Below, one piece after another: positions 13,636 to 56,600 of a stretch of 64,000 nt of DNA. Position 1 is the stretch's first letter. Every line of letters starts with the position of its first letter. A model generated the notes under the pieces. The model was not told the origin of the DNA. It ran no database searches and was given only the letters and a program-made list of their open reading frames with translations. The translations under genes and the position numbers were made by a program. The stretch lies in the NCBI GenBank assembly GCA_964187785.1, contig OZ076409.1, forward strand, positions 55,182,001-55,246,000, given 5' to 3'. This stretch comes from Amphiscolops sp. MND2022 (taxonomy: Eukaryota).

Positions 13636-14410
13636 CTAAACAGTAATTCACCAGTGAAACCCCGAGAAACTTTCATACAATTAAACTATAAATTTCAAAT
13701 TTGCATCACAAACAATGCACTTAATTAGTTTATACCAAGATTCGATTGACCTTATTCTCTTTCCAACTGATTTGACATTGTAAAAGGGACAAAAGGCCAC
13801 AGAGAATGCGAGTTAATTGTTTCCGTCCTTATCAGTTTTAGCAACATGCACTCAAAAGTAGCTGCAAAATTACGGGAAAAGTTAAAAAACAGGCGATAAA
13901 TTTTAAGAGCTTTATAACAGTAGTCAAGTGCCTAGACGAAAAGCATATATTGTTAGATTGACTATAGGCACATAAAAGGACCGTGCATGTCGAAATTTCA
14001 GGGTACAATGATAGAACAAATGTTGCTTTTGCTCATGTTGAAGAGGGGGACGCCTTGGTGAAGTTTTTCAAGTATCAGTACGCTGTAAGCTGCTGCAGAG
14101 AATCCCTAAAGTATCAGTATCGATCCCATTGGAGTTTTGAAAGTTTTTGAAAAAATGGTTATTGCAGAATAATCTATAAATAGGTCACCGCATCACAAAA
14201 TAATTGACTGTCAGAGAAGGTTTGGCACCCGAATGTCAAGGTTAAGACAGCCTTATGTGTACTATGACACTTATGGAAGACTCAGGATGAAAGATATGTC
14301 GAAAGTACCTCTTTTTGGGATATCTCAAGCGGAATCTTTCAGCTTGAATCATTCAGAAAAATGATCAAAACCCGTTCTCTGTTTATAACTATTATGTCTT
14401 TACAGATGTA

Positions 14411-14465
14411 AGAAGAATACAGCCGCAAATAAACCAGGTACTTAGAACAGTTTTAACCCAAATTT
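14411..14465 (+). repeat. Polinton left terminal inverted repeat
   Basis: Exact reverse complement of 38448-38502. Weak similarity continues ~40 bp inward. Confidence 0.95.
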
Positions 14466-14596
14466 TAATTAAATTAAAATTTAACACAAGTACTTTTACA
14501 AATTCTTTTAAGAATTACTGAAAAGGAAATGAATATTCATTCCTATACGCACACGCGTGGCTGCTTTTAATTTAATTTGCGCACGCGCTGGCGGCC

Positions 14597-14685
14597 GTGC
14601 GCGGTTTTTCCCGCGCATCCGCACAAGCTACACGAGCGCGGATTTATCCGCGCAGGCTATACGAGCGCGGATTTTTCCGCGCCGT
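14597..14685. promoter_or_regulatory. Cluster of three GC-rich palindromes just inside the left TIR
   Basis: GCGCGG-tttttc-CCGCGC, GCGCGGA-ttta-TCCGCGC and GCGCGGA-tttt-TCCGCGC in tandem. Function is inferred only. Confidence 0.5.
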
Positions 14686-14954
14686 TCCCATATGCAGCAT
14701 TTTTTTAAACTTTCGTGCGCTCTCACGGCCAATAGAATTGGCTCACACACTCATCTGTTGTAATTTTCAATTGCACAACTATTCATCATCAACTCTTTAT
14801 CAACAACAGCAGCTCTTTCTTCAACGCTAACACTTCTACTCAATCTTCTACGACTATACAAAATCCCGCAGCAAATGTTAGTATTTTTCTAAGTGAATTT
14901 CCATTCCCAATCAACAAAAATAGCAAGCTTCTTTAGTTTTTTTTCTGTTATAGC

Positions 14955-15262
14955 ATGTCTCAAAACAACACCACCACCAGCATCGCCGCCGCCGCCACCA
15001 CCACCACCAGCATCGCCGCCACCACCACCCAGAACTATCCAGAAACGGAAATGTGGGTTATTTATTTGTTCGTTTGCTTACTGGATTGAAAACAAATTCT
15101 TATTAAATTTTCACGAGCTTGCAAATCAAACTGTTTTATTCTAGAATCATCAACGCCAATTCGCAGTCGCCTCTGCTTACCACCCCGATCTTTGTTTTGC
15201 CGCCGCCCTACGAAGAAGAAGAAATTTATTCATCGGAGATCTCCCAGGACTCAATGTCCGAG
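14955..15262 (+). CDS. Putative spliced Polinton left-end gene (exons 14955-15052 and 15145-15262; downstream exon uncertain)
   Basis: ATG follows a polypyrimidine-AG. GTGGGT...ttctAG intron, in-frame join (MSQNNTTTSIAAAA...PIFVLPPPYEEEEIY...SE), then a GTATGT donor. Confidence 0.4.
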
Positions 15263-15450
15263 GTATGTTGAAGCAATGTTCATATTTTTGACAGAATTTT
15301 TTTTGTTTGCGCCCTTTAGCAATTGAGAACCTTAACGAAAGTCAAGTTGCACAATCATTGAAAAAAAAGGCAACAAAAATAGTTTCCTATTGTAACAACG
15401 AATGTACACTAAACCTTCAGTTCGAAAAAATTTTGTGTGGAAAACATTGC

Positions 15451-18400
15451 TTTTGTGTTGTTTGCGCATTGCCATTGTACAATACAAGTGCATACACGCA
15501 CGTAGGACTTGTGTAACGACCCCGTGGGTGACCGGACAAAATCCGCGTCGCGCGGATTTTTATTTTTTGCTTTTGTCAAGCTCCCCGTGCATTGTGGGAA
15601 TGTTGTTTTTGTGTTGTTTGCGCATTGCCAATGTACAATACAAGTGCATACACGCACGTAGGACTTGTGTAACGACCCCGTGGGTGGCCGGACAAAATCC
15701 GCGTCGCGCGGATTTTTATTTTTTGCTTTTGCCAAGCTCCCCGTGCAATGTGGGAATGTTGTTTTTGTGTTGTTTGCGCATTGCCAATGTACAATACAAG
15801 TGCATACACGCACGTAGGACTTGTGTAACGACCCCGTGGGTGGCCGGACAAAATCCGCGTCGCGCGGATTTTTATTTTTTGCTTTTGCCAAACTCCCCGT
15901 GCATTGTGGGAATGTTGTTTTTGTGTTGTTTGCGCATTGCCAATGTACAATACAAGTGCATACACGCACGTAGGACTTGTGTAACGACCCCGTGGGTGGC
16001 CGGACAAAATCCGCGTCGCGCGGATTTTTATTTTTTGCTTTTGCCAAACTCCCCGTGCATTGTGGGAATGTTGTTTTTGTGTTGTTTGCGCATTGCCAAT
16101 GTACAATACAAGTGCATACACGTACGTAGGACTTGTGTAAGGACCCCGTGGGTGGCCGGACAAAATCCGCGTCGCGCGGATTTTTATTTTTTGCTTTTGC
16201 CAAACTCCCCGTGCATTGTGGGAATGTTGTTTTTGTGTTGTTTGCGCATTGCCAATGTACAATACAAGTGCATACACGCACGTAGGACTTGTGTAACGAC
16301 CCCGTGGGTGGCCGGACAAAATCCGCGTCGCGCGGATTTTTATTTTTTGCTTTTGTCAAGCTCCCCGTGCAATGTGGGAATGTTGTTTTTGTGTTGTTTG
16401 CGCATTGCCAATGTACAATACAAGTGCATACACGCACGTAGGACTTGTGTAACGACCCCGTGGGTGGCCGGACAAAATCCGCGTCGCGCGGATTTTTATT
16501 TTTTTTGCTTTTGTCAAGCTCCCCGTGCATTGTGGGAATGTTGTTTTTGTGTTGTTTGCGCATTGCCAATGTACAATACAAGTGCATACACGCACGTAGG
16601 ACTTGTGTAACGACCCCGTGGGTGGCCGGACAAAATCCGCGTCGCGCGGATTTTTATTTTTTGCTTTTGTCAAGCTCCCCGTGCAATGTGGGAGTGTTGT
16701 TTTTGTGTTGTTTGCGCATTGCCAATGTACAATACAAGTGCATACACGCACGTAGGACTTGTGTAACGACCCCGTGGGTGGCCGGACAAAATCCGCGTCG
16801 CGCGGATTTTTATTTTTTGCTTTTGCCAAACTCCCCGTGCATTGTGGGAATGTTGTTTTTGTGTTGTTTGCGCATTGCCAATGTACAATACAAGTGCATA
16901 CACGCACGTAGGACTTGTGTAACGACCCCGTGGGTGGCCGGACAAAATCCGCGTCGCGCGGATTTTTATTTTTTGCTTTTGCCAAACTCCCCGTGCATTG
17001 TGGGAGTGTTGTTTTTGTGTTGTTTGCGCATTGCCAATGTACAATACAAGTGCATACACGCACGTAGGACTTGTGTAACGACCCCGTGGGTGGCCGGACA
17101 AAATCCGCGTCGCGCGGATTTTTATTTTTTGCTTTTGCCAAGCTCCCCGTGCATTGTGGGAATGTTGTTTTTGTGTTGTTTGCGCATTGCCAATGTACAA
17201 TACAAGTGCATACACGCACGTAGGACTTGTGTAACGACCCCGTGGGTGGCCGGACAAAATCCGCGTCGCGCGGATTTTTATTTTTTGCTTTTGCCAAGCT
17301 CCCCGTGCAATGTGGGAATGTTGTTTTTGTGTTGTTTGCGCATTGCCAATGTACAATACAAGTGCATACACGCACGTAGGACTTGTGTAACGACCCCGTG
17401 GGTGGCCGGACAAAATCCGCGTCGCGCGGATTTTTATTTTTTGCTTTTGCCAAACTCCCCGTGCATTGTGGGAATGTTGTTTTTGTGTTGTTTGCGCATT
17501 GCCAATGTACAATACAAGTGCATACACGCACGTAGGACTTGTGTAACGACCCCGTGGGTGGCCGGACAAAATCCGCGTCGCGCGGATTTTTATTTTTTGC
17601 TTTTGCCAAACTCCCCGTGCATTGTGGGAATGTTGTTTTTGTGTTGTTTGCGCATTGCCAATGTACAATACAAGTGCATACACGTACGTAGGACTTGTGT
17701 AAGGACCCCGTGGGTGGCCGGACAAAATCCGCGTCGCGCGGATTTTTATTTTTTGCTTTTGCCAAACTCCCCGTGCATTGTGGGAATGTTGTTTTTGTGT
17801 TGTTTGCGCATTGCCAATGTACAATACAAGTGCATACACGCACGTAGGACTTGTGTAACGACCACGTGGGTGGCCGGACAAAATCCGCGTCGCGCGGATT
17901 TTTATTTTTTGCTTTTGTCAAGCTCCCCGTGCAATGTGGGAATGTTGTTTTTGTGTTGTTTGCGCATTGCCAATGTACAATACAAGTGCATACACGCACG
18001 TAGGACTTGTGTAACGACCCCGTGGGTGGCCGGACAAAATCCGCGTCGCGCGGATTTTTATTTTTTTTTTGCTTTTGTCAAGCTCCCCGTGCATTGTGGG
18101 AATGTTGTTTTTGTGTTGTTTGCGCATTGCCAATGTACAATACAAGTGCATACACGCACGTAGGACTTGTGTAACGACCCCGTGGGTGGCCGGACAAAAT
18201 CCGCGTCGCGCGGATTTTTATTTTTTGCTTTTGTCAAGCTCCCCGTGCAATGTGGGAGTGTTGTTTTTGTGTTGTTTGCGCATTGCCAATGTACAATACA
18301 AGTGCATACACGCACGTAGGACTTGTGTAACGACCCCGTGGGTGGCCGGACAAAATCCGCGTCGCGCGGATTTTTATTTTTTGCTTTTGCCAAACTCCCC

Positions 18401-18874
18401 GTGCATTGTGGGAATGTTGTTTTTGTGTTGTTTGCGCATTGCCAATGTACAATACAAGTGCATACACGCACGTAGGACTTGTGTAACGACCCCGTGGGTG
18501 GCCGGACAAAATCCGCGTCGCGCGGATTTTTATTTTTTGCTTTTGCCAAACTCCCCGTGCATTGTGGGAGTGTTGTTTTTGTGTTGTTTGCGCATTGCCA
18601 ATGTACAATACAAGTGCATACACGCACGTAGGACTTGTGTAACGACCCCGTGGGTGGCCGGACAAAATCCGCGTCGCGCGGATTTTTATTTTTTGCTTTT
18701 GCCAAGCTCCCCGTGCATTGTGGGAATGTTGTTTTTGTGTTGTTTGCGCATTGCCAATGTACAATACAAGTGCATACACGCACGTAGGACTTGTGTAACG
18801 ACCCCGTGGGTGGCCGGACAAAATCCGCGTCGCGCGGATTTTTATTTTTTGCTTTTGCCAAGCTCCCCGTGCAA
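15451..18874. repeat. 156-bp tandem array, ~22 near-identical copies, each with a 10-bp-stem hairpin followed by a T-run
   Basis: The sequence recurs every 156 bp (lines 15481 and 16261 align at 5x156). Each unit contains AAAATCCGCG-tcg-CGCGGATTTT. Confidence 0.97.
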
Positions 18875-19198: not shown

Positions 19199-20302
19199 AT
19201 GAAGTTCCGAAAGCAGCGGGACGCTTTTCAAGTTCTTTACGACTATTTTCGAAGAGGTCGCCAGTCAAGTTTCCACGTTGTGGTCCTCACGCCGTACGTT
19301 GAGCAATTCACGAATAATTTCCTTGGTTACAGCGCTACTGTAAAAGACTACAGCAAAGTTCTTTTTCCCTGTCAATCGATTGACGAGGACGTCAATCACG
19401 TTTACCGAAGTTTCCTCGGTTCAAACACGGACGTGAAGCCAATAAAATGGAAAAAATACGAGGTGATGGATTACCACTACAAGCGATCCTTCGACAGTCT
19501 AGTCCTCGGTATTGATTACGATGAAATTGAAAAAGATTTCCCAGCTGGCGATTCGGATTCGGACGATGATTGGAGTGACGATGGGATCTTCAATCATGAT
19601 GTAGCAGTTCCTGATATAACTTTCAACAACCTCAACGACAATCAAGCCGTCAGGGTCTTCAAGGTCCTTGCAAAGATCAATGATTTCCCATCTTTGCTGG
19701 TCGGAGAAACACGCTTCATTATTGGTCTGAGCAGCCTGCCGGTAGAATCCGTCAACGATGGGTTCCCTATTAAATTTTACTGGGATGTTGGAGAAATGCA
19801 GTTGGTTGAAAATGACACTCTTATTTTCTTGCCAGACGACTGCCTCGAGAAACTGGAGACCATTTGGCTCAATAGCAATAACGAAGAGAATATCTTCGAA
19901 TTTCTTCTCATTGTCGATTTTGAGCAGGGTGTGCTGCGATTTGGCCTCAACGACCAATTACTTTTGCAGACAATCTGTTTCCAAAGTGACCTCGCTTATG
20001 AGATTAGAATTTACTTCACCAAAACCACGGAATCATTGATGATATTAGAGGTTTTCAATCAGCCAAAAGCCTTGTCAAGTCTTGTGCCAGAGTGTCTGTT
20101 GAATATGTATCAAGAGCAGGCCGACGATTTGTTTAGCTGTCAATGGCCCAACGAATTTGTTGAACATCTGGTGAAAAAATTCTATTTTCAGAATTGTTCA
20201 AAAGGTTCAACGGTCACTGATGAACATCATCCCCTGATGGTTTCCCGGAAGTCTCTCTTGGAAGCCCATAGAATTACCAGAATGCAATCGCAAGCTCTGT
20301 AA
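19199..20302 (+). CDS. Divergent SPRY + SOCS-box-like protein (SPSB/Gustavus-like)
   Basis: FIIGLSS, FYWDVGEMQLVEND, FLLIVDFEQGVLRF and PKALSSL occur in the same order as SPSB AVVGVAT, WGWDLGRNRLYHD, FLVALDMDDGTLSF and PLPLMDLC. First ATG is 19199, with an acceptor-like site just upstream. AATAAA near 20435. Confidence 0.6.
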   Translation: MKFRKQRDAFQVLYDYFRRGRQSSFHVVVLTPYVEQFTNNFLGYSATVKDYSKVLFPCQSIDEDVNHVYRSFLGSNTDVKPIKWKKYEVMDYHYKRSFDSLVLGIDYDEIEKDFPAGDSDSDDDWSDDGIFNHDVAVPDITFNNLNDNQAVRVFKVLAKINDFPSLLVGETRFIIGLSSLPVESVNDGFPIKFYWDVGEMQLVENDTLIFLPDDCLEKLETIWLNSNNEENIFEFLLIVDFEQGVLRFGLNDQLLLQTICFQSDLAYEIRIYFTKTTESLMILEVFNQPKALSSLVPECLLNMYQEQADDLFSCQWPNEFVEHLVKKFYFQNCSKGSTVTDEHHPLMVSRKSLLEAHRITRMQSQAL

Positions 20303-21813: not shown

Positions 21814-24800
21814 ATGGGGTTCAATCCTGAGCAGTACTATAGTGTAAATCGAATGCCACAAAGACGTAGTCTGTTGCGAGCGGCCAGCAGAGACTATGAA
21901 GTGTACTTCACGGACATTGAAAGTGTGCTGGATCGAATTAAAGAGATTTTCAACCACCTCATCAACAAATTGATATCTGAGATACAGCAAGATCTTCCTG
22001 GTCATTCACACAGAATTCGATTGGTATTGAATGCGCCTACCCTCAACTATCCTATTCATATCCCATTCTCGTCCGTAGCGGATTTCAACGCCGAACTGAT
22101 TCTCGATGAAATTGACAGGGTCGTTAATTCCAACGAGTCATTTGATATTAGCAACAATATCAAAGTCAACGTTTTGAGTGTTTCTTTACCAACAATGGGC
22201 GGGAACCGGCTTGGAGGCATACAGAGCAGGACTGTTCCCGATATCAAGCTCTTCACGAAACAAAAGTCAATAATTGTAATCAAAAGTGACCAGAACGATT
22301 GTCTTTTGCGGGCCATAGCAATTGGCATCAAAGTTAAGGAGCGATCTCCCCGGCCGCCTAGTAAAAGAAAAACGACAAAAAACTTGCACCTGGATCGGGC
22401 TTCCGTGCAAACGCGTGAAATGCAGCATTTGATAACCCTTCTGAAATCTGATCCAAGCATCCCCCAAGACGAATTGCAGACAATTTTGGCTGGTGGTGCT
22501 TCCTCGAAAAGACTTCCCACCTCTGCCTTTGACGACTCCTCTACTGGGTTGCTTCACCATCAGACAGCTCAAACCTCTCCTGCTTCTGGTAAACCTCTTG
22601 CTCTACAAGATTTAGAATTTTTGTCTCAGTCGCAAGTGTTGAAAGACTTTTGTTTATCTGTTTACGATAGCAACTTTATGGGCACTTTCCTTAAATGTTA
22701 TAATCAGGAAGCACAGCAGAATATCGACCTTTTGTATGATGCTCAAAACAGACATGTAGATTTAGTTACCTCAATGAAAGGACTATTCGATGCTCGCCAC
22801 TACTGTTACAGTTGTCACAAGGCCTTTTCCACAGTGAAGCATTTATGCTCTGCCAGTGGTTGTTTGCTGTGTCGGCAGCCTGGCTGTCTCAATAGGACCG
22901 GTTTCATCAACCTTTCGCCGCTCAATTGGACTACCTCGTCCAATGACTTGTCAAAGACCCCTCGCCAGTCACCGGTTTTCCAGTGTGATAGATGCAGGCT
23001 AAAGGTACGAAGCCAAAAGTGTCTGGATTGCCATGTTACCTCTGGGGTGTGTCATTTGTACACTTTGTGCCCTACATGCGACAATACTGTACCTAAGCGA
23101 GCTTTCTCCAATCATATTTGCTCAAAAAAACGCTGTTCTACTTGCTCCGTCCATTACTCATTGTCAGACCGTAAAAACACCTCTTCGCCTTCATCGGAAC
23201 ATCAATGTTTCGTACAAAAACCGAAGAGATGTATAGAGCGAGAAATACCGAATGGTGATACCAATAACGAATTTCCTGATTGTGAAATATTGGGCGGAGA
23301 GAATTATCGTGAAGAAGTTGAGAAAGAAGATCCGATGACGCAAATCAAACGCAGGAAAGTGAGCAACGCTCCAGTCGATGACGATGGTACTGTTACGTCT
23401 CGTGACCAGCCAGCAAACAACTTTGCACGAGCTCCCTCGGATGACAAAATTTGGGTTTTTGACATAGAAACTGACCAGAGTTGTGGCAATGAAGGGCTAC
23501 ATAAACCAATTCTACTGGCAGCAGAGTCTTTGACAGGTGATGAAGTTATTTACTGTGGCTACGATTGTATAAACGATTTTTGTGAGGATGTTTTTGCTAG
23601 TGTTGAAAGGGTTCGTCAAACTGAATGGTTTATTGCCCATTTTGGCAGTGGGTTCGATTTCCTACCAATCCTGGAATGGCTCTACAAACAACACAAATAT
23701 GTCCCCAAAATTTTGCTCAGAGGTAACAAGGTTGTGTCAATGCGTGTGGGGAATAAACGATTCATTGACTCTTATCTTTTCATCCCGATACCTTTATCAA
23801 ATTTTCCCACAACGTTCAATCTCAAGGAATTGAAAAAAGGATACTTTCATTTTTTGACATCTAAAGAGGCCCTCTATCCCGCCGCTACTTCAAAGCTGCA
23901 TAGTTTACAAACATGCGAGAAAGGGGAAAACTGCAATCTGCGCAAAATTGTTTCCAACGACTGCAATCACTGTGTAGCTACACAAAGCAATGTTAGCTGC
24001 TTCAATGCAGGAAATGACCAAGAAGAATGCCAAGAGTTTGCTCTCAAAGAAGGCCAATTTCAACCCGCGTGCCTTTTTGCTTTGAATTCGATGAAAGGAC
24101 AGCAAACGGTGAGCACGTTTTTGGAATGGCACTCAGCACAGACCCAGCTTTATAAAGTTAATAAGCTCGTTTACGACTTTCAACAAGAACTCGTGTCGTA
24201 CTGTCAGTCAGATGTTAAACTACTCAAAGAGGGTTTTTTGAAGTTTAGAACATTAATCAAGAAAGTGTGCAGCGGAATAGATCCGTTCGAAGTCGCTTGC
24301 ACAGCAGCATCAGCATGTAATTACATTTATAGACAACTATTCATGCCGAAGGACTCCATCGCAATCCTCCCTCAGAACGGTTACACGGGCAATGAGTTAA
24401 CGTCTTTCCCAGCTGCCGTTTGGCTGTCGTGGGTGGAACAAGTTGCAAATGATCGGAAGTCAAACGAGTTCAGTATTCGTCTGTATAAATCAGGCGGAGG
24501 ATTGAAGCGAGGCAGAGGTAAGGAGCAGACACTTGGATCATTCAAAGTAGACGGACTTCTTCTGTACAAACGAACATCTCAATCAAAGAGTACCGCATGT
24601 GGGAGTGTTGTCCAGAAACCACAACTGTCGATAGTTTTGGAGTTTTTTGGATGTTACTTCCACGGGTGTCCTTCTTGTTATACAGACCGAGATGAGGTTA
24701 ATAAGAAACGAAATGTTACAACAATGCATGATTTGTACACCACAACAGTTATGGACAGACTGGACTGGATATCAGCTCAAATCTCGAACGGCACAGTCTT

Positions 24801-26841
24801 CACAACAACAGATAACTTACGTTTTGTTGTGCATAGTATATTTTTCATTTGGGAATGTGAGTTTAAAAAACTGTTGGAACTGTCCATATCCGAAGACGAA
24901 GAAGGAATTGATACAACGTGGACGCATTTGCCGAGGTCAGTAGCAGCAAGACTCAGCAGCTCCCCCTCGAGCAATTTCGATGACATCCAGCAGGTCGAAC
25001 AAAGTCGTGTAATACATCAGACCTTACTGTATCGGCTGAGTAACATCAAACTACTGCAACAGATGTCAAATGACAGCATTCGTTACAGTCCGTTACAGCC
25101 TCGTGACGCTTTTTTTGGAGGAAGAACAGAAAATTTTGTCATGAAGTGGTCTCGACAACTACAGTCTCAGACCTTCAAGTATGTCGATGTTTGTTCGCTG
25201 TACCCATATGTGAATTCCAGGTCAGTGTACCCTTCAGGGCATCCTGATTTGATTCTGATTGCTACAGAACAGCAACAACAATCGATTGCGCGTAAAGAAA
25301 AGGCTCGGAATAACAGCAACTCTGCCAATGAAAAACCGCCTCAAACCAGTTGGTTTGACGAGGATGTGAATGTAGCTCAAAGTAAAGCTGTGGAGTTTAA
25401 ACTTTTGGATCGGGTTGACAGGATTCTTACAATGCCCAGTAACGAACGAGACTCGGGAGGAGATCAATGTGAAGCGGAACAATCACATTCTCTGCCTCCA
25501 CCACAGAGGTTCCGAAAGTTCTCGCAACGAACGCTTTTGGAATTCCCCTTAACTTTTGTTGAATTAAAATTGAAAAACGAGGATTATTTTGGTCTGATAA
25601 AATGCCAAGTACTGCCACCGTCTGATATACATCTACCCATTTTACCATTCAAATTTCAATCGAAACTCTTTTTTCCGCTATGTCGAAGTTGCGTTGAAGA
25701 AAGATCCAGCATGCCTGACAATAAGAGTGTGGACTTGACATCAAAGAAGTGTGTTCATCGCCAAGTAGAAGAGAGGAGTTTCTGGGGCACATTTGCTACC
25801 CCAGAAGTTAAGCTTGCTTTGGAAAATGGATACCGAGTGATAGATGTAGCAGAGATTTGGAGTTGGTCGAGAGCAAAAAGGTCTGTGACATTGTTCAAAG
25901 AATATATCGATAACTTTTTGAAAATAAAAATGGAGGCATCTGGTTGGCCAAAAACATGCCGCTGTGAAGAGAAGATGAATTCTGATTCATCGACAGAAAT
26001 GATATGCGAGCATAAGAGGCGTTACCTTCAGGAGATGAAGAAGAAAGAAGGCATTTCACTTGACCCTGCGAGGATAGAGAAAAACGAAGGTCTACGCTTT
26101 ATTGCTAAAATACTTCTGAACAGCTTCTGGGGTTATCTCGGAATGCGGGATAATATGCCAAAAACGAGGTACGTTAACAACTATCGAGAGGTCGTGGACT
26201 ATTTCACATCGCGAACAAAAAGAGTTACTGATGCGACTCTAGTGGGCGATGATTTGATGCTGCTACAATATCAACTCATTGATGACGCGGCAGACGCTCC
26301 GCGGAAGACAAATGTGATTCTTGCTGCCTTCACAACTGCACATGCTCGCATAATACTTTTCAACAATATGCAGCTGGTGAAAAATCCTAAAAATGTACTC
26401 TATTGTGATACAGACAGTATCATGTATGTCCACGATCAATCTCTGACCGATTCCCCGGATATCTCAATTGGGAGTGGACTGGGCGAAATGACCGACGAAC
26501 TGCCTCCTGATGTCTTGATTGACAAGTTTTGGAGTGCAGGGCCAAAGTTTTATTGCTTGTCTGGTCACAACGTTAAAACAGGACTGGAGTATAATATTTT
26601 CAAAGTCAAGGGTGTAACGCTGAATAGGGCTACAGAGAAAACATTCAACCCCGATACCTTCAGAAAACTCGTGCTTGGTGAGACTCATGAATTGCGAAGT
26701 ATTTACAGTAGTCTGAGTCGTTGTGTTCGAACAGGCCAACTGAAAAACAAGTTTTGTGAAAAACGCGCCCGAGTCACAAGTAACAAACGTGTTTTCAACA
26801 CAAATTCCGGCGAATCTACACCGTTTGGTTACGTCGGTTGA
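21814..26841 (+). CDS. polB: Protein-primed family B DNA polymerase (pPolB), 1675 aa
   Basis: Exo I FDIETD, Exo II AHFGSGFDF, Exo III YCQSDV; motif A YVDVCSLYP, motif B KILLNSFWG, motif C YCDTDS; GPKFY and KVKG. Intact ORF. Confidence 0.97.
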   Translation: MGFNPEQYYSVNRMPQRRSLLRAASRDYEVYFTDIESVLDRIKEIFNHLINKLISEIQQDLPGHSHRIRLVLNAPTLNYPIHIPFSSVADFNAELILDEIDRVVNSNESFDISNNIKVNVLSVSLPTMGGNRLGGIQSRTVPDIKLFTKQKSIIVIKSDQNDCLLRAIAIGIKVKERSPRPPSKRKTTKNLHLDRASVQTREMQHLITLLKSDPSIPQDELQTILAGGASSKRLPTSAFDDSSTGLLHHQTAQTSPASGKPLALQDLEFLSQSQVLKDFCLSVYDSNFMGTFLKCYNQEAQQNIDLLYDAQNRHVDLVTSMKGLFDARHYCYSCHKAFSTVKHLCSASGCLLCRQPGCLNRTGFINLSPLNWTTSSNDLSKTPRQSPVFQCDRCRLKVRSQKCLDCHVTSGVCHLYTLCPTCDNTVPKRAFSNHICSKKRCSTCSVHYSLSDRKNTSSPSSEHQCFVQKPKRCIEREIPNGDTNNEFPDCEILGGENYREEVEKEDPMTQIKRRKVSNAPVDDDGTVTSRDQPANNFARAPSDDKIWVFDIETDQSCGNEGLHKPILLAAESLTGDEVIYCGYDCINDFCEDVFASVERVRQTEWFIAHFGSGFDFLPILEWLYKQHKYVPKILLRGNKVVSMRVGNKRFIDSYLFIPIPLSNFPTTFNLKELKKGYFHFLTSKEALYPAATSKLHSLQTCEKGENCNLRKIVSNDCNHCVATQSNVSCFNAGNDQEECQEFALKEGQFQPACLFALNSMKGQQTVSTFLEWHSAQTQLYKVNKLVYDFQQELVSYCQSDVKLLKEGFLKFRTLIKKVCSGIDPFEVACTAASACNYIYRQLFMPKDSIAILPQNGYTGNELTSFPAAVWLSWVEQVANDRKSNEFSIRLYKSGGGLKRGRGKEQTLGSFKVDGLLLYKRTSQSKSTACGSVVQKPQLSIVLEFFGCYFHGCPSCYTDRDEVNKKRNVTTMHDLYTTTVMDRLDWISAQISNGTVFTTTDNLRFVVHSIFFIWECEFKKLLELSISEDEEGIDTTWTHLPRSVAARLSSSPSSNFDDIQQVEQSRVIHQTLLYRLSNIKLLQQMSNDSIRYSPLQPRDAFFGGRTENFVMKWSRQLQSQTFKYVDVCSLYPYVNSRSVYPSGHPDLILIATEQQQQSIARKEKARNNSNSANEKPPQTSWFDEDVNVAQSKAVEFKLLDRVDRILTMPSNERDSGGDQCEAEQSHSLPPPQRFRKFSQRTLLEFPLTFVELKLKNEDYFGLIKCQVLPPSDIHLPILPFKFQSKLFFPLCRSCVEERSSMPDNKSVDLTSKKCVHRQVEERSFWGTFATPEVKLALENGYRVIDVAEIWSWSRAKRSVTLFKEYIDNFLKIKMEASGWPKTCRCEEKMNSDSSTEMICEHKRRYLQEMKKKEGISLDPARIEKNEGLRFIAKILLNSFWGYLGMRDNMPKTRYVNNYREVVDYFTSRTKRVTDATLVGDDLMLLQYQLIDDAADAPRKTNVILAAFTTAHARIILFNNMQLVKNPKNVLYCDTDSIMYVHDQSLTDSPDISIGSGLGEMTDELPPDVLIDKFWSAGPKFYCLSGHNVKTGLEYNIFKVKGVTLNRATEKTFNPDTFRKLVLGETHELRSIYSSLSRCVRTGQLKNKFCEKRARVTSNKRVFNTNSGESTPFGYVG

Positions 26842-30275: not shown

Positions 30276-31133
30276 TTGGCGGACCTCCACAGTCAGAGTC
30301 AGAGGATCAAAGCTAGCGATCGACAAAATGATGAGTCTTTTTGTGAGTCCATTGGGCAGTCACCGCGTTGCTTACCGTTTTCTCAAGCTGTATTTTTGAC
30401 ACAACTTGCTGTCATTTTTATTTTGGACGCATTCTGTCTGTTGAAACTTATCACATCCCAAACTGAAGCAAGCACAAAACAGAACCGAGAAATAACTGAC
30501 AATTCGTGTCACGATACATCGATTTATATGAGCATTCTGAGCTCAATGTTAGCCTATCTTATTCCGGCCCCAAGAGTACCTGTGAAAGTCCAAAGTGAGA
30601 GAAGACAACGCACTGTAAAGATATCATCCAATGAACACTCAAAAAGAACGGGATTAACAGCGCAATGTTTTTCATCACCTCAACAACGTCACGATCAGCA
30701 ATCAAATGAAGCAAATTTGGGAAAAAACGAGGTTCCTGCTGTTTCAGCCACTTCGGTAGCGTTGCCGATTGAACCCGACACGCAGATTGAAGGCGTGGAT
30801 TACCCTGACTATGATTGTTTGCCAGAATCAAATGCAACACTAAGTCTTTACAACCAGTCAAAAGACGCAACGAATCTTTCCTGCAGTATAAATTTTGACG
30901 TGGAAGAAGACTCTGACATTTGGCTCTGCTTCAATTGGCAAGTAAGCCGAACTTTTTTCATTTTTTTCTCACAGATTTTTTTCGTCATGGGTCTTGTTTT
31001 GTTCTCCGTTAGTAGAATGTTATTGGTATCCTCACTGAATTGTGAAGAACGAACTGCTCATTTCATGATTCTTTCCACTTGCATTGCCTACTTGTTACCC
31101 AATGCTGATAATCTCGACAGATCAAATAAATAA
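30276..31133 (+). CDS. Membrane protein with two tandem copies of a two-helix module
   Basis: VFLTQLAVIFILDAFCLLKL...C..TSIYMSILSSMLAYLIP and IFFSQIFFVMGLVLFSVSRML...C..RTAHFMILSTCIAYLLP. Lies directly upstream of the ATPase. Start codon uncertain (ORF begins at TTG). Confidence 0.65.
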   Translation: MADLHSQSQRIKASDRQNDESFCESIGQSPRCLPFSQAVFLTQLAVIFILDAFCLLKLITSQTEASTKQNREITDNSCHDTSIYMSILSSMLAYLIPAPRVPVKVQSERRQRTVKISSNEHSKRTGLTAQCFSSPQQRHDQQSNEANLGKNEVPAVSATSVALPIEPDTQIEGVDYPDYDCLPESNATLSLYNQSKDATNLSCSINFDVEEDSDIWLCFNWQVSRTFFIFFSQIFFVMGLVLFSVSRMLLVSSLNCEERTAHFMILSTCIAYLLPNADNLDRSNK

Positions 31134-31137
31134 CGAA

Positions 31138-32196
31138 ATGAATAAATTAATTTCCACGGAAAATCGCATTTTTATGTGTGTCTGTGGCGCATCAGGCTCT
31201 GGTAAAACACACCTTTTACTAAACATGCTGACCAGTCGTTCCGACGGTATATTCTGGCCGAGGTTCGAAAAAGTTATCCTCTTCTACCGCCATTGGCAAA
31301 CAATATATGAACAATTTTATCAAGATGTGCCAAGCAAAGTTTTCTTTGAAAACGTGGTTGAAACGGAGAACGAAACCGGCCTTGCAAAACTTGGTAATCA
31401 GAAACACCAAACCCCAGGTCATAAGACAAGTCATTCAAGAATAGATACCCTGATTTCAAAACTCTTGGATCATCAATCCCAGGAAAGCAAATACCATACA
31501 ACGTTTGGAAATGAAAAAGCATTGGCAATTTTTGATGACTCGTGCGAAGAAATTCTTCAGAGCGCAACCTTCGCCAATCTTGCAACCGCTGGTCGACATA
31601 AAGGGGTCAATGTGATTTTTATCAAGCATAACTTGTACCAGCAGGGTAAATATTGTGTCACGGTCGACAAAAATACAACACATTTGATAATTCTCAAGTC
31701 ACCAAGAATAGGTCGGCAGCTCAGGCTACTGGGGTCCGAACTGGAATTTGCTGATGCTGCGTTCCTTCAAGATGCTTACCAGTTGGCCACATCCGTGCCA
31801 CATGGACACCTGCTGATTGATCTCAGCACCAACTGTCATGATGCCCTCAGGTTTAGCACTCGTATCTGCAGAGCTAGCGACGACATAACTACGCTGATTA
31901 AACAAAACAAAAACAAACAACGATCAAAAGTGCATTCAACCACCAACATTACGCGAAAGAAAGAGAAACCAGACAGTCGGATCCTCATCAATCTCAAAAA
32001 GGTTCTACCGACTGGGTTTTACGTTCCTAAAAGAGTTTTCAACAATTACGCTCGTGTCTATAAAGATCACACTGTTGGCACACACAACATTACTGTAAAC
32101 AGGACCAAAAACTATCCAATCATTGCCTTTCCAAAGTTGTCGCCCTCTTCTATTCTTTACCGGGAATATGCATTATACAGTCCGAATCATCGTTGA
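31138..32196 (+). CDS. A32/FtsK-like DNA packaging ATPase
   Basis: Walker A GASGSGKT, Walker B AIFDD, GRH arginine motif, IFIKHNLY. Confidence 0.92.
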   Translation: MNKLISTENRIFMCVCGASGSGKTHLLLNMLTSRSDGIFWPRFEKVILFYRHWQTIYEQFYQDVPSKVFFENVVETENETGLAKLGNQKHQTPGHKTSHSRIDTLISKLLDHQSQESKYHTTFGNEKALAIFDDSCEEILQSATFANLATAGRHKGVNVIFIKHNLYQQGKYCVTVDKNTTHLIILKSPRIGRQLRLLGSELEFADAAFLQDAYQLATSVPHGHLLIDLSTNCHDALRFSTRICRASDDITTLIKQNKNKQRSKVHSTTNITRKKEKPDSRILINLKKVLPTGFYVPKRVFNNYARVYKDHTVGTHNITVNRTKNYPIIAFPKLSPSSILYREYALYSPNHR

Positions 32197-32843: not shown

Positions 32844-33875
32844 ATGACTTTCGAACGTAGCAAGCATCGAAATGTCAAGGAGAGGAAGCTGACTGAGTCA
32901 GAATATCGTAAACTCCATGGAATCTATACCTCCCCAAGTGACCCGGCCGCTTTTGGCAGCGTTAAAAATTTGGTGAAAGCAAGTGGCTTGCCACGTTCTA
33001 AGGTCTTGGCTTACCTACAATCGTCGTCGACGTACACAAAGTTCAGGGCGACAAAACGGAAATTCGCTCGCTTACCTGTTGTATCGCTTGGCATTAACCA
33101 TATTTGGTCACTGGATGTGGCATATATGGAGAAATTGGCCAATTTTAATAATGGTAACAAATACTTACTTCTTGCAGTGGACACGCTCTCTAGAAAAATT
33201 TGGGTGCAACCGATGTTGAACAAAACAGCTGCAGCTGCTAAAGCAGCCTTCGAGAAAATGTTGAATTTCGAGACGATGCAGTTCCCCATTAAGCTATGGG
33301 TTGATCAAGGCAAAGAGTTCAGGGGTGAATTTTTGAAATTTTGCAACGATAACGACATTGAAGTTTACAGTACTTTCAGTGAAACAAAAAGCTGTATGGC
33401 CGAGCGTTACATCAGGACACTGAAAACTATTCTCTACAAGTTTTTCGAAGAACATCGAACTTTCAAGTACGTTCATCTACTTCCAAAATTTGCTTCTCTT
33501 GTAAATAGGCGTTACAATCGCGCCATTGGTATGCCTGCTGCCAATGTTACTGCTAAAGACGTTCCTAAACTAATTGCTCTCCAATTTGAAAAGTCAAAGA
33601 CTCGTCCGCAGAAACCTCAATTTGAAGTCGGTGATCGAGTACGTATTGCGCTGAAAAACATGCCATTCCGGAAAGGCTACAAACAACAGTACACCAATGA
33701 AGTTTTTAAAGTTCATCAAGTTTGTAAGCCTAAGAAAACTGGGCTGGCAACGACTTACAGATTAGAAGATATCAAAGGCGAGCCAATTTTGGGAAGATTT
33801 TACACCGCCGAGCTCACTCATTTCAACTATCTACAGAATAGGAGCCGGCCGCGTCATCAACGTATCCTAAATTGA
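32844..33875 (+). CDS. int: Retroviral-like (RVE) integrase of Polinton type
   Basis: DDE triad SLDVA / WVDQGKEF / MAERYIRT, plus a C-terminal FEVGDRVRI..FRKGY module. No chromodomain seen. Confidence 0.95.
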   Translation: MTFERSKHRNVKERKLTESEYRKLHGIYTSPSDPAAFGSVKNLVKASGLPRSKVLAYLQSSSTYTKFRATKRKFARLPVVSLGINHIWSLDVAYMEKLANFNNGNKYLLLAVDTLSRKIWVQPMLNKTAAAAKAAFEKMLNFETMQFPIKLWVDQGKEFRGEFLKFCNDNDIEVYSTFSETKSCMAERYIRTLKTILYKFFEEHRTFKYVHLLPKFASLVNRRYNRAIGMPAANVTAKDVPKLIALQFEKSKTRPQKPQFEVGDRVRIALKNMPFRKGYKQQYTNEVFKVHQVCKPKKTGLATTYRLEDIKGEPILGRFYTAELTHFNYLQNRSRPRHQRILN

Positions 33876-33980: not shown

Positions 33981-34811
33981 ATGAGTGAGTCCTTCACAAT
34001 CACACTCTCTTCTAATGCTTCCCTTGATGTGTATCAGTCGAACACTCTGGCTTCATTCAGGACATGCCTCCCGACTTCCATTGAACTTGATGGCCCGTGG
34101 GAGGTTGCGATCACCGAAATAGCGTATCCCCGGAAGATTTACAACGTACGCGACTCCTACTTTGATTTCTATTGGGATGTAGGTGGAAAGAAGTGGGTCA
34201 AAAACTGCAAATTTGAGAGGGGTGTTTACAACGACGTGCAGGAAATCATTGATGAGATGAATAGAAGCATTCATCGTGCGCGAGGGGCATGGAATAAAGA
34301 AAAGTTGAAAGTTTATTTCAGTTGGAAAATCGATGCCGAAAACAAATTTGTTTTGAATTACCCAAATACTGTCAAATTTGCAAATATGTCGCCCGATCTT
34401 TTCCATATTCTTGGATGTCAGCGGGTGAAGTCTCCCTGGAAGCATCCACCTCATTTTCATGACATGCCATCCTATTTCCCAGTTGATATTCATCATTGGC
34501 ATCAAGTTTACGTGTATGGCGATTTCATCGAACAGCAGTTTGTTGGAAACAGTAGAGCGCCTCTATTGAACACTTTCCCTTTGTTCAACCCTCAGCAGAT
34601 GCCGCCAAGAGATTTGGAGGAGAAACCTGGGGGGAGTTTCGGATACGGCGTTTGTTCTTTCAGGTCTTTTTCAACTCCAGTATTCAAAAAAGTGTCAAAG
34701 AAAACATTGACCGACTTGCTGATAGAATTACGCACTGATACAGGAGATCTGATACCTTTCGTTGGCGTCGGAAGAACAACATTAACTCTTTTATTGAGAA
34801 AGAAGACTTGA
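33981..34811 (+). CDS. Minor capsid protein (penton, single jelly-roll)
   Basis: FTITLSSNAS...NTLASFR..LP..IEL.G.WEVAITEI.YP N-terminus and VYVYGDFIE..FVG...APLL, typical of Maverick pentons. Confidence 0.8.
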   Translation: MSESFTITLSSNASLDVYQSNTLASFRTCLPTSIELDGPWEVAITEIAYPRKIYNVRDSYFDFYWDVGGKKWVKNCKFERGVYNDVQEIIDEMNRSIHRARGAWNKEKLKVYFSWKIDAENKFVLNYPNTVKFANMSPDLFHILGCQRVKSPWKHPPHFHDMPSYFPVDIHHWHQVYVYGDFIEQQFVGNSRAPLLNTFPLFNPQQMPPRDLEEKPGGSFGYGVCSFRSFSTPVFKKVSKKTLTDLLIELRTDTGDLIPFVGVGRTTLTLLLRKKT

Positions 34812-35614: not shown

Positions 35615-36949
35615 ATGCCTGATACATTTATTTACTCCGAGCCACCAGTACCTGGCATGCATTCAGGACTGTCATTGTTTGGGACCTCTGAGATCCTTGT
35701 CGATTTTCAACGTGGTTATCATGAGGAAATTTTCACTGCAAACAGTGCGGATGGGCCGGTGTTGGAGTTTGATTTCCAGGGGGCCAAAACCGACATTGGA
35801 GGTACAGTAATAGACTTGGTTAATCTTTTCCTGAAATTGGAGGTCAAAATGAAATTTGTTGGCAGAGGTGATGATGACGATGTAACTGATAAGAAACCTG
35901 TTTTTGTTAACAATTTAATGCATAGTTTATTCCAAAATGTAGAGGTTTCCCTTAACGGGACACCAGTGTCGTCAGCAAACAACTTATATCCATACAAAGC
36001 GTTGGTTGAGGCAGAACTTTCGCATAACGCTTCGTGTAAAGAAGGCTGGCTACACTGTCAAGGGTACAGTTTCGAAACAAATCCTGGAGACATTAGTGGT
36101 GATGAGGCATTCAGCAACAGGAAGAAACTAGGTGAAAATTTGACGTCAAAGTGGAGTCTTTACGGTAGAATTGCCGATAACTTCTTGGCAGACAATCATA
36201 AGTTTCTACTTCCTGGTGTCGAGGTCAGAATTCGACTTTATCGCGCACCCGACCAATTTGTGTTGGTCCATGAAGGAGGTGCGAAAGACTCAGCAGGTGA
36301 TTTCTCCTTACAAATTGTAAGCGCCTCTTTGTTGGTTCACAAGCTGGAATTGAAAAATGAGACTTTTCTAACAATCGAGCGAATGTTGTCCAAAAAAGCC
36401 GCTCACTACGATTTTCGTGAGATGGTCCCCAAATCGTTCCTAATCTCCAGCGGCGTCACTATGTATTACAGAGACGACCTCTTCAACCGTGCCCCGATAA
36501 GTCGATTGGTGTTGTTTTTGGTGCCGGAAACTAGCTTCAGTGGTAATTTTGAAACAAATCCTTTCCACTTTCAGCAAATGGACCTCGAGACTGTACGAAT
36601 CAATCGAGAGGGAGCACTTGTAGGGGCCACGCCTTTGCATCTTAATGATAATCTCGTTCGTTCTTATTACAACACTCTGAAGGCAGTTGGTTTTGAACAT
36701 GGTGGTAACGGTATCACTCTTGACAATTTCAATAATCATTTCTGTCTGGTTTTTAAATTAACTGCTGATTACCACATCGAGAACACAATTCGTCCTGAAC
36801 TCACTGGCGCGCGGCTGGGTCTAGAGCTGAAGTTCTCCAAAGCAACAACAAAACCAATTCGTCTCATTTTGATGGGCGAGAGGAGGTCCATCGTTCTCAT
36901 TGATCGCAACAGAGAAGTTATCAAAAACTCCAGTATTTACAATGGTTGA
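35615..36949 (+). CDS. Major capsid protein (double jelly-roll)
   Basis: 444 aa with NNLMHSLF..VEVSLNG..VS...LYPYKA, LLPGVEVRIRL and NPFHFQ motifs typical of Maverick capsids. Confidence 0.88.
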   Translation: MPDTFIYSEPPVPGMHSGLSLFGTSEILVDFQRGYHEEIFTANSADGPVLEFDFQGAKTDIGGTVIDLVNLFLKLEVKMKFVGRGDDDDVTDKKPVFVNNLMHSLFQNVEVSLNGTPVSSANNLYPYKALVEAELSHNASCKEGWLHCQGYSFETNPGDISGDEAFSNRKKLGENLTSKWSLYGRIADNFLADNHKFLLPGVEVRIRLYRAPDQFVLVHEGGAKDSAGDFSLQIVSASLLVHKLELKNETFLTIERMLSKKAAHYDFREMVPKSFLISSGVTMYYRDDLFNRAPISRLVLFLVPETSFSGNFETNPFHFQQMDLETVRINREGALVGATPLHLNDNLVRSYYNTLKAVGFEHGGNGITLDNFNNHFCLVFKLTADYHIENTIRPELTGARLGLELKFSKATTKPIRLILMGERRSIVLIDRNREVIKNSSIYNG

Positions 36950-37422
36950 CAACACTCAGTTAACGGACATAATCAACAAAGACCCAGTACTCAAATTCCG
37001 GTTTCGAGGTTGTTACGCCCGAGATACATTTCCTGCCTTGCAAAAAAATGGATTCATTATTGTGAACACACATCCCTCAACTCAACCTGGTGAACACTGG
37101 CTACTCATCGCTTCGAAAAATGACAGTGTTACTTTACGATAGTTTCGGGAGAGATTTCCGAGAGTATTTTGCGGACATCTTTGCAAAAGTTGGTCGATCC
37201 GTCCGTCCGAGAAATCAAGGTATCTTTCAATACAAGCCATCTTCGACGCTACTTCAGCCTGCTGATAGTCAATTCTGTGGCATATATTGTATTTATTTGG
37301 CACATTTTTACTATAGAACAAAACAGTCACTTACAAGCGAAAAATTGATTCAAATTTCGAGTTTTCCGTCATATGCCACAGAAGAAGACGTTTTGAGATT
37401 TTTAGTCCATCTTTCAAGATAG
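36942..37422 (+). pseudogene. Adenain-like cysteine protease split by one frameshift near 37120
   Basis: IVNTHPSTQPGEHW (His) in one frame; YDSFG (Asp) and LQPADSQFCGIYC (Gln, Cys) in the next. The shift lies at or near an A5 run. Confidence 0.88.
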
Positions 37423-38313: not shown

Positions 38314-38447
38314 CCAACTCCCTGCTCTGCATGCGAACAAATTCCTTTATTTTTCTACTATCCCCTACTTTATCATCAAATATTTATTCCCAGCAGCAAA
38401 CAGAGGTTTGAAGTTTTAAAAGTGTTTGTTAAAATTTTATTCAATAT

Positions 38448-38502
38448 AAATTTGGGTTAAAACTGTTCTAAGTACCTGGTTTATTTGCGGCTGTATTCTT
38501 CT
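38448..38502 (-). repeat. Polinton right terminal inverted repeat
   Basis: Reverse complement of 14411-14465, followed by TSD GATGTA. Confidence 0.95.
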
Positions 38503-39285
38503 GATGTATTATGGTCTTACAGATAATTGAGATGTATAAATATTCGCCACAATGCAAGTCACAGGACAAAAACCCATTATCAACCAATCAATCAAGTTTT
38601 CCAATTGGTTCGCGAGAATTCGTTTGAGCACAGGTTCCAAGGAATTTTTTTGATGAACCAGTATTAACTAATATTTTGGTGCCATGAAATGCATGTTGAA
38701 TTAGCCAATCAGATGGGCATGTTTCTGAATTCCCTGTTCAGTGCAGGGGTTACCCGGACAGAAATCTTTGAATAACAAGCAAACAGACAATGGCTAACTG
38801 AAATAAAATATAGGCCTCTCGGCATGTTAAGGGCGACCCGTTTCAACATTACGATACATATCCCCGCAAGCAAGTTCCCAGATCTTGCGACTTGCATTAA
38901 TAACCAATCACAGTGAGTTATTATTATAAATACAGTTTTACACTTTTGTCATATTACGCTTGAAGTGGTTGCATATAAATCAGCTGTCAACTAGCTACCA
39001 TAGTCCCCTATATGTTCCATAGACCACGAGGCTTGTTATTCTCCTCCTCTTGCTGATGTTTAACCATTTATTGTTTGAATCATCACTGAAACTGCGAGGA
39101 TGCTCTGCAGCTTGCAGCACAACACCAAAAATGGGCTTACCACTGTAGAGTTTCCACCGTAGAAAGGAAGGATCAATTCAGTACAATTTGGAACAAAAAA
39201 ACCTTGACAGAGACTAAACCTCCTTACCCATATGCGATTACCTTGATATTTTTGCACATCTAGAGACAGAATGAATGAAAGATAC

Positions 39286-47629: not shown

Positions 47630-48677
47630 ATGACGGCACCACGACACTCTCGACAAGAGAAGCTGCTGTTTAGTGGACGAGAGGATGACTTCCCCACTTT
47701 TCTGGAGCAGTTCGAAGCAAGAGTCTATGCCCTGGGACTTTCTGACTGCCTTCTGGACAATCAGAACAACACCTCAAAAGGATGTGGAGACGAATGATGA
47801 ACGTGTCAAGCGAGACGGGGAAGAAGCAGATCGAGCCAAACTACAGTACATGGTGTGGTGCGAGCTGGTTCAGTGCCTTGACAAGGCAAGCATCAACTTC
47901 ATCAGAGGGCACAAGCCGAATGGGACTGCAGCCTGGACAGCTTTGACGAAGCTCCACAAATCAACTGAACGGCCTCGTGTTCAATCACTGATGACACAGC
48001 TCACTGGTCTCAAGATGACATCAGGGGAGAAGGTGACTGACTACCTCACCAAAGCAGAAGGGCTCAAACTGGATCTGGCTGAAGCGGGGGAAGTGGTCTC
48101 AGATGCTCTCTTCATAGCGATGATTCTCAAGGGTCTTCCAAGTGACTTCGACAGTGTGGTGGCAGTCCTCAACTTCGGCACAGCAAAGGGGTACTACGAG
48201 ATGAAGCAGGACTTGGTCAACTTCGCAGCAACCAGGGGTCTCTGTGTTTCCAGCGAGACATCGATGACAGCAATTCACTCAGCCGGGAGGAAGCCTTCAA
48301 AGTGCTTCAAGTGTGGAAAGATGGGGCACCGAGCTAAAGACTGCCACAGTCGGGAGACGAGGACTTGCTTCAACTGTGGTCAGATGGGGCATCTGGCTTC
48401 AACTTGCAGGAAGGGACAGCAAAAGAGCTCAAGTGGAGGATGTGGATCGGGTCAATCCAGCAACCATTCATCAGCGGACTTCTTCAGCTTCGGGGCTTTC
48501 AGGGCTGGTTGCTACGACAAGGGGAGCATTGAGCTTCTCATTGACTCTGGGTGCAACGGCTTCATGATCAAGAACAAAGAGCTCTTCTCTGATCTGGACG
48601 AGGGTTTTCTGGCAGACGTATGCAACGCTAACAGCAGTCGTTCAGAGGAGGACATGGGACAGTGCGATGCTTTGTGA
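47630..48677 (+). CDS. gag: Copia gag-protease region (frameshift near 47760)
   Basis: MTAPR...LLFSGREDDF start, two CCHC knuckles (CFKCGKMGHRAKDC, CFNCGQMGHLASTC), protease LIDSGC. Confidence 0.85.
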
Positions 48678-55800: not shown

Positions 55801-56600
55801 TGCAATTCCAGAATTCTACAAACTGGTATGCTACAAATTGGACCTAACCAATTTGTAGGAAACCAGTTTGTAGAATCCAGTTTGTAGAAAAAAAAATTCT
55901 ACAAACTGGACCTCACTTTTCTACAAACTGGTTCCATACCTATTAAACGATTTCTTTTTTTACAATTTAATGTGTTTTTCCCGTTTCTCAGTCGTATTTT
56001 GATGACGTTCGGATGTTTTGGGCGTTTTTTTTTCGGATTTTATACAAGATTTTTTTTTCAGACGTATTTGCATAGTTTTCTGATCTCTTGAACGTTTTTT
56101 TTTCGATTTAGGTGCAAATATCCATTAGACACATAGACTTTTGCTCGTTTTCCGTGGCCTTGAATTTTTTAACAGTTCATTCCTGAAAACTAGAGCAAGG
56201 GAAGAAGTTTTCAACATAAGAAAAAATATTTCATAGTCGGGAATAACATCTAAAAAACGGGAATAACGTCTAAATATTTAGACGTTATTCCTGAAAATTG
56301 AGTAAAATTTAGATTTTATACCTTTAGACATTGTTCCTCAGACGTTATTCCCGCCCCTGGGAACGGAGATCGCGAAGCGATGGTGGTGGGAGCTGGTCTT
56401 TGCGACGGTGAGGGCGAGCGTGCATACACCGTATATGACCCCTCATATCATTTTCGATCCTTTTAGCAAAAACTATCCCCCTTCAATTTCGACCTACTAC
56501 TTTATCGACCATTTTAAACTTGAGTTGTTTCGACCAAAAGTTTTCGACTTGGGTATATCTCGCCGAAGTTACATTAGTCCGGCAGTTAGTGGGAATCAAC
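52850..56600. repeat. Patchwork of nested MITE-like and minisatellite repeats
   Basis: A ~200-bp unit (ATGTGGGGCATATGCGGTGTATGCACGCTCGCC...) occurs near 53450, 54100, 54420 and 55560, inverted near 56360, and again at 61850-62105. Interspersed with TAAGCCAA, GACGTTTCGGCAAAA, GGAATAACGTCTAAA and CTACAAACTGG minisatellites. Confidence 0.8.

Follow-up and report, generated by a model that had tools for sequence, protein, structure and literature searches.

The array and its palindromic units

We have analysed a stretch of 64,000 nucleotides from Amphiscolops sp. MND2022 (assembly GCA_964187785.1, contig OZ076409.1, positions 55,182,001 to 55,246,000 of the forward strand), which is called the window here and whose first letter is position 1. 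The window contains a Polinton of 24,092 bp (14411-38502), and a tandem array of 156-bp units, starting 1,036 bp inside the left end of this element, is the subject of the present analysis. Tandem Repeats Finder delimits the array at 15447-18873 (period 156, 21.9 copies, 98% matches), and unit comparison resolves it into 22 units with a mean pairwise identity of 98.1% (range 95-100%), 11 distinct types being found among the 21 full units. The array takes up 3,427 of the 24,092 bp of the element (14.2%), and no match to the unit was found outside the array, either in the element or in the 64-kb window. Features of the array and of the left arm are as follows (strand not assigned unless stated).

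15447-18873: tandem array, 21.9 x 156 bp (Tandem Repeats Finder and unit comparison)
15538-15560: first of 22 identical head-to-head palindromes, 10-bp arms and 3-nt spacer, followed by a T-run (unit positions 86-108)
15609-18734: 10-unit higher-order repeat, 15609-17170 (1,562 bp) and 17171-18734 (1,564 bp), from the unit variant pattern
14599-14682: subterminal cluster of three tail-to-tail dyads GCGCGG-W5-YCCGCGC at 14599, 14636 and 14665, with five WWWCCGCGC and one TTTCCCGC (14607)
14729-14741: inverted pair of CCAAT boxes, possible left-end promoter
14877-15319, plus strand: three intron-like GT..AG stretches (14877-14953, 15053-15144 and 15263-15319), possibly of a spliced left-arm gene or leader

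An exact palindrome, AAAATCCGCG-TCG-CGCGGATTTT, with a 10-bp stem and a 3-nt loop is present in 22/22 units, and so is the T-run, which has 6 T in 20 units, 8 T in one and 10 T in one. The description given in the original prediction, i.e., about 22 nearly identical units making up 14% of the element, each with a perfect 10-bp stem, a 3-nt loop and a T-run, was therefore confirmed in every part. A perfect stem of at least 10 bp with a 3-8-nt loop appeared in only 3 of 2000 dinucleotide shuffles of one unit, which indicates that the palindrome exceeds chance. The whole unit folds no better than its shuffles, both as RNA (z-score -0.46, 67/200 shuffles as good) and as DNA (z-score -1.26, 21/200 as good). 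Comparison of the unit with Rfam gave no match and a tRNA scan found none; A or B boxes of RNA polymerase III (Pol III), for which we used a presumed consensus, are lacking on either strand, and a TATA box, a histone stem-loop and the adenovirus packaging motif are likewise absent from the unit. The unit length had been remarked to be close to nucleosomal size, a suggestion that gained no support from the search for a 10-bp AA/TT/TA periodicity in the unit, since 2063/5000 shuffles were equally strong. A 10-nt match lying one period away had raised the possibility that a degenerate unit 0 precedes the array; this was rejected, because 58/500 shuffles and 98/500 other windows were as good.

The half-site of the palindrome is found again at the left end of the element. 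WWWCCGCGC occurs 27 times in the 64 kb, 22 times in the array (once per unit) and five times at 14599-14682, in the dyad cluster lying 190-270 bp from the left end; the remainder of the element (19.6 kb), its right end included, and the 40 kb of host DNA have none. WWTCCGCG was counted 4 times in the left arm of 1,036 bp versus 0.17 in shuffles, and 0/3000 shuffles had as many. The dyad cluster itself folds as three hairpins (z-score -4.87). In the array the half-sites stand head-to-head, whereas those of the left end are tail-to-tail, and this opposite arrangement suggests that a DNA half-site fits better than an RNA fold. The left-end dyads, the TTTCCCGC at 14607, which we take to be the E2F consensus, and the inverted CCAAT pair together read like a TATA-less cell-cycle promoter, provided that the consensus motifs we assumed are appropriate.

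The order of the unit variants gives information on how the array has grown. Units 2-11 recur as units 12-21, that is, a block of 10 units is duplicated: 10/11 unit pairs at lag 10 are identical over the compared 140 nt, with T-run length levelled, 0/100,000 permutations were as good, and the only differences between the two 1.56-kb halves are one substitution and two T. This recurrence points to a near-doubling of the array by one recent block duplication.

The carrier Polinton and arrays in its other copies

The carrier element is a Polinton. Of the features characteristic of Polinton/Maverick elements, it has a protein-primed family B polymerase (pPolB; PF03175, E-value 4.8e-27), an integrase, a double jelly-roll capsid protein, an A32-type ATPase, a 6-bp target duplication and inverted ends, which match perfectly over 55 bp and at 93% over 76 bp. 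The core genes are all on the plus strand, and the listed features of the element outside the left arm and array are as follows.

14405-14410: left target-site duplication GATGTA, with the same 6 bp at 38503-38508 (strand not assigned)
14411-14486, plus strand: left terminal inverted repeat, starting with AGAAGA
19199-20302, plus strand: first conventional open reading frame (ORF) behind the array, 367 aa, with an SPRY-like fold in a low-confidence model
21814-26841, plus strand: element feature
31102-32196, plus strand: A32-type packaging ATPase (PF04665, E-value 6.3e-07)
32844-33875, plus strand: retroviral-type integrase, rve (PF00665, E-value 2.8e-10)
35615-36949, plus strand: double jelly-roll major capsid protein (model with a predicted local distance difference test score, pLDDT, of 78.8)
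36873-37422, plus strand: putative adenain-like protease, spread over two reading frames in this copy (Peptidase_C5, E-value 0.082, below cut-off)
38427-38502, minus strand: right terminal inverted repeat, without a palindrome cluster behind it

The capsid protein belongs to a 90% cluster of 32 members, of which the 15 listed lie on contigs of 15 different lengths; this indicates that the Polinton family is multi-copy. For the arrays of sister copies the evidence consists of predicted proteins only, ORFs called across the arrays serving as a proxy; the proxy is usable because the unit equals 52 codons and some of its frames are open, so that gene callers read through. The plus-frame array ORF falls into a 90% cluster of 14 proteins on contigs of 11 different lengths, 10 of them other than that of the window, and a minus-frame search of 50% representatives combined with cluster look-up added 8 further contigs. 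Of the 14 minus-frame matches, seven are clearly unit-derived (P0102-P0104, P0106, P0107, P0110 and P0113), and P0112 was counted with them; P0109 was judged by eye to be unrelated to the unit, and P0105, P0108, P0111, P0114 and P0115 (20-28% identity) were excluded from all counts. Array-derived ORFs are thereby found on 18 other contigs, 16 of which are tied to this Polinton family and 2 are not: 14/18 also carry a listed relative of the adjacent 367-aa ORF, and a flank peptide of the element is seen in 2 of the other 4. The copy number in other insertions, a point to which the original prediction had drawn attention, is 8 units in one copy spanned by its protein over both array flanks (P0089) and at least 16 in two (P0091 and P0097), and the range in the family is 8 to 22.

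Two diverged unit lineages were recognised, lineage B on three contigs with 67-72% residue identity to the frames of the window unit and lineage C on one contig with 61%, and the arrays are homogenised in both. Among 104 full sister units, four unit variants occur in 10/10 sister arrays and a fifth in 6/10, in mixed order, as repeated exchange would produce. The array grows via block duplication, and units are reshuffled between copies.

Several observations on the relatives and neighbours of the element can be added. P0047, a member of the capsid cluster that is also in JGI/IMG, lies on a 20,652-bp contig, 13 bp under the length of the element minus array (20,665 bp), and this contig may represent a copy that lacks the array or one in which short-read assembly has collapsed it. 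The unit pattern had no match in metagenome contigs, the polymerase and capsid of the element had none in viral contigs, and the polymerase had only 2 weak matches (31%) in metagenome contigs. The bare 23-nt palindrome pattern was found once in 2.9 million viral contigs, at L001:11-33 near a contig end, and was taken as chance. The best matches of the capsid model are the capsids of Sputnik (top, E-value 6.8e-16), iridovirus, Paramecium bursaria chlorella virus 1 (PBCV-1) and mavirus. The two-frame protease-like gene reflects either a lesion or a sequencing indel, and a penton (minor capsid) candidate at 33981-34811 had no Pfam or PHROG match. A U/G-rich tract plus YAG stands shortly upstream of several start codons (14953, 19195 and 37551), and the acceptor-like tract before the 367-aa ORF has 14 nt in common with the array unit (E-value 0.097).

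The model of the 367-aa ORF has a mean pLDDT of 48.7, about 70 in residues 150-285, and matches SPRY/concanavalin-type sandwiches including Gustavus and SPSB1/2/4 (E-value 1.8e-4), the top match being levanase; its C-terminal helices resemble what we presume to be a SOCS box. If it is Gustavus-like, this putative adaptor could target germline defence proteins such as Vasa. Outside the Polinton, the window carries gag and pol ORFs of a Copia-type long terminal repeat retrotransposon at 47685-51706. Two further regions, 53400-62100 and 42650-43195, are repetitive: they hold a dispersed family of about 100-117 bp, which is found in both orientations and has short palindromic tandem repeats, as well as a 184-bp x 2.9 repeat.

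A candidate cis-acting module and competing explanations

The array is real and family-wide, and the function discussed below is proposed from sequence. With a probability of about 0.45, a little under even odds, we regard this copy-variable tandem repeat of the Polinton family as a multimerised cis-acting binding module of the enhancer or anti-silencing type; it is likely a stretchable bank of predicted protein-docking sites rather than a replication origin or an RNA gene. The array lies between the left-end dyad cluster and the plus-strand gene cassette, and each unit contributes one palindrome, the predicted binding site of the factor that would also recognise the left-end dyads. Array turnover would be driven by unequal recombination or polymerase slippage during replication of the element. 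Up to 44 half-sites would be available to a dimeric DNA-binding protein, which, once bound, would raise or restore transcription of the cassette. The candidate factor may be of a host CGCG-core type such as E2F/DP, or an element protein as in the VANDAL/VANC system of Arabidopsis described below. Host methylation would likely oppose its action, given that the sites are rich in CpG and that sister arrays show more CpG transitions than expected: these make up 11/69 of the private changes versus 3.2 expected (P 3.5e-4), an excess that suggests methylation and decay after insertion, with the reservation that some private changes may be sequencing errors. Among the functions offered in the original prediction, that of a putative enhancer or protein-docking array has the best support, inferred from the half-site in common with the left-end dyads and from a stem free of lineage-wide change in two lineages. 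In this lineage comparison, which counts match or mismatch to natural window units only, codon positions of the stem differing by majority numbered 0/16 in lineage B versus 22/124 outside the stem, and 0/11 in lineage C versus 20/65.

Many of our own results tell against the binding-module reading or reduce its force. Taken singly, stem conservation has P 0.155 (B) and 0.115 (C), and the pooled chance of about 0.02-0.03 is post hoc; lineage C consists of one 126-aa ORF covering 80/156 codon positions, and one codon straddling stem and loop does differ in it, the residue change being read as loop. The hairpin is only the 28th of 156 windows by conservation. Lineage B shows stronger conservation in a U/G-rich block (unit positions about 149-33, 0/39 differing versus 25/105), which in lineage C, where 5/20 differ, is not so well kept. 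Private mutations fall in the stem in 13/69 cases versus 9.5 expected, and hairpin codons are kept in 84/104 sister units; private stem mutations are expected in dormant copies, yet give no support. The motif WWWCCGCGC was picked after inspection of the sequence, and no match to TTTSSCGC is present in the array, for which reason E2F as the factor is only a guess. Furthermore, of the 28 listed contigs that carry the 367-aa ORF, 14 were without an array match in a search that was not exhaustive, and the sister evidence is not only protein-level but relies on contigs matched by printed size, so that an origin from one assembly is not implied.

The competing explanations differ widely in probability. 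An error of assembly, or a host satellite that entered only this copy, has a very small probability as the source of the array: the 10-unit block may be a false assembly duplication, in which case 12 units would still remain, but the 11 distinct unit types stand in an ordered pattern, the array halves differ at three positions, and on other contigs, arrays flanked in the same way show variant orders of their own. The original prediction had named two findings that would undo it, namely reads reducing the array to 1-2 units and a common host satellite missing from sister elements; the arrays on the other contigs speak against the former and the 18 other contigs, 16 of them element-tied, against the latter, so that both a faulty assembly and a stray host satellite are very improbable as explanations of the array. 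Possible, though on the unlikely side, is a neutral passenger, for which a 156-bp piece of the left arm would have been duplicated once, slippage and unequal exchange subsequently enlarging the array and shuffling its units; it would ride along as the capsid tolerates about 10% length change, and the palindrome would aid amplification or be a chance echo of the left end. Copy numbers ranging from 8 to 22, private mutations evenly spread with the stem included, the marginal stem conservation and the short similarity visible between the array flanks and the unit junction all agree with such a history, and central arrays without known function are common in transposable elements, e.g., oyster Helitrons (PMC8268682). 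A homogenised array, however, persists in three unit lineages, where recombination should presumably collapse a useless array to one unit, and the half-site is clustered at the left end and absent from the rest of the element and the host DNA. An action at the transcript level is improbable; the array would lie in a spliced left-arm transcript, each unit being a short exon plus a 57-nt hairpin-bearing intron, a U/G-rich RNA signal or a source of a repeated small RNA. The W repeats of Epstein-Barr virus (EBV) are a model for a repeat transcript of the exon/intron type, and in agreement with it three intron-like stretches precede the array, an open frame of Cys/His pattern (15292-15516) enters unit 1 and is kept on three other contigs, units have GT donors and a T-run with AG in 12/22 of them, and the best-kept block is the U/G-rich tract that is partly common to the tract before the 367-aa ORF. 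The AG is nevertheless preceded by A and missing in 10/22 units, the Cys/His frame has no Pfam, PDB or Atlas match, and no two-sided stem change is seen in what the protein frames reveal. The small-RNA version, suggested originally as a template for structured RNAs, found no support, as unit folding is not above shuffles and the unit has neither an Rfam match nor, on either strand, the internal A and B boxes of Pol III viral RNAs of the virus-associated (VA) RNA or EBV-encoded small RNA (EBER) type. We also considered a RING-finger exon interrupted by the array (15292-15513) and rejected it, for it gave no profile or structural match. P0099 and P0101 differ from the window frame 15292-15516 over five residues, apparently through a compensating indel pair in A-runs after which the same frame is regained; this may hint at coding, but the search favours such matches.

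A role in replication, packaging or tethering, in which the array would be an iterated origin, a packaging signal, a capsid stuffer or an episome tether, has only a slim chance. The array lies near the left terminus as adenovirus packaging repeats do, its units bear palindromes as in baculoviruses, and the element encodes an apparently complete capsid module. Protein-primed polymerases initiate at the ends of their elements, and as the polymerase here is of this type and the array stands at a single site, not several, the iterated origin put forward in the original prediction is unlikely; moreover, neither a helicase nor a primase gene is found among the 23 ORFs scanned, the packaging motif that we presume to be TTTG-N8-CG is absent from the unit and the left arm, and the unit number varies nearly threefold. 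A protein-coding repeat of 52-codon units, with a frame open on either strand, is to be given a negligible probability. It is true that 156 is divisible by three and that 3/6 circular frames are open (187/2000 shuffles have at least 3), but the frames are lost where T-run length changes by +2 or +4, frameshifts terminate the sister ORFs, 8/8 substitution variants of the window alter the residue in the plus frame, and Pfam matches to the repeat ORFs are repeat-summed noise with no stretch passing alone.

Relation to known systems and meaning

The element shares with Polinton/Maverick elements of animals the inverted ends, the 6-bp target duplication and genes for pPolB, rve integrase, A32 ATPase and a double jelly-roll capsid, with a candidate protease in addition, and its 24.1 kb and 76-bp end repeat are inside the ranges given for vertebrate Polintons (12.7-24.6 kb and 46-1,447 bp; PMC8097293, PMC4028283, PMC8502044). 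It differs in that 14% of it is a copy-variable array and that the core genes are all one-directional. In the available portions of PMC8097293, PMC6431247, PMC8502044, PMC4028283, PMC11296320, PMC12220804, PMC12910113 and PMC7598501, no internal copy-variable array is described for Polintons; the founding Polinton/Maverick papers, Repbase and supplements were outside the scope of this literature search and may mention such repeats. The nearest case is a locust satellite resembling a coding stretch of a Polinton (PMC4935994). The block duplication, the family-wide variable copy number with two diverged lineages, and the half-site common to the array and the left end are first recorded here.

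Among systems with multiplied motifs, the VANDAL transposons of Arabidopsis with their VANC proteins (PMC5735166) offer a parallel, a short motif being repeated in tandem within the non-coding and terminal parts of a DNA transposon. The VANC motifs are not the same from family to family (PMC5735166), whereas the present motif is palindromic and seemingly kept between the (close) lineages B and C, and a VANC-like binder encoded by the element was looked for without success, no DNA-binding family being found among the unassigned ORFs of this Polinton. Baculovirus homologous regions (hrs) are likewise tandem arrays in which every unit bears a palindrome of about 23-24 bp, and their activity scales with copy number (PMC4535591); they occupy several sites on a circular genome and are origins with IE1, in contrast to one site on a linear, protein-primed element here. 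If the binding-module reading holds, the array would work like VANDAL target repeats or the enhancer side of hrs; it is a member of neither class, because it has a single site, no binder was found and the motif is kept between lineages. Central repeats of Helitrons/Helentrons (PMC8268682) and of foldback Tetris elements (PMC4079207) are also element-bound, of satellite size and variable in number, but the carrier here is autonomous and capsid-encoding; free-standing arrays outside the element, as the incipient satellite suggested in the original prediction may form, were absent from the 64-kb window, and 2/18 other contigs are untied to the element. Herpesvirus arrays, for example the 132-bp repeat of Marek's disease virus, resemble the present one as copy-variable repeats of 100-200 bp beside a viral promoter, possibly in a spliced transcript, and have no sequence relation to it. 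The W and FR repeats of EBV are further copy-variable arrays of herpesviruses.

A bolder proposal, which we consider rather doubtful, is that the Polinton array is an expandable, CpG-rich, dose-tunable and methylation-sensitive switch for leaving latency, in which the left-end factor site has been multiplied up to 44-fold and evolves concertedly family-wide, while unrelated palindrome arrays would arise at the corresponding place in further Polinton families of this host. Should the array be neutral, insertions can still be traced by its copy-specific fingerprint, and it exemplifies a capsid-encoding element seeding satellite-size repeats. A family-wide array matching the left-end dyads is at the same time a bait for DNA pull-down and a natural dose series of 8 to 22 units. 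The activation of integrated animal Polintons is described as not understood and their particles as not yet observed (PMC8097293); if the proposed methylation-sensitive switch is true, no cis-regulatory element for Polinton reactivation would have been defined before it, and it could guide the search for the tissue in which particles are made.

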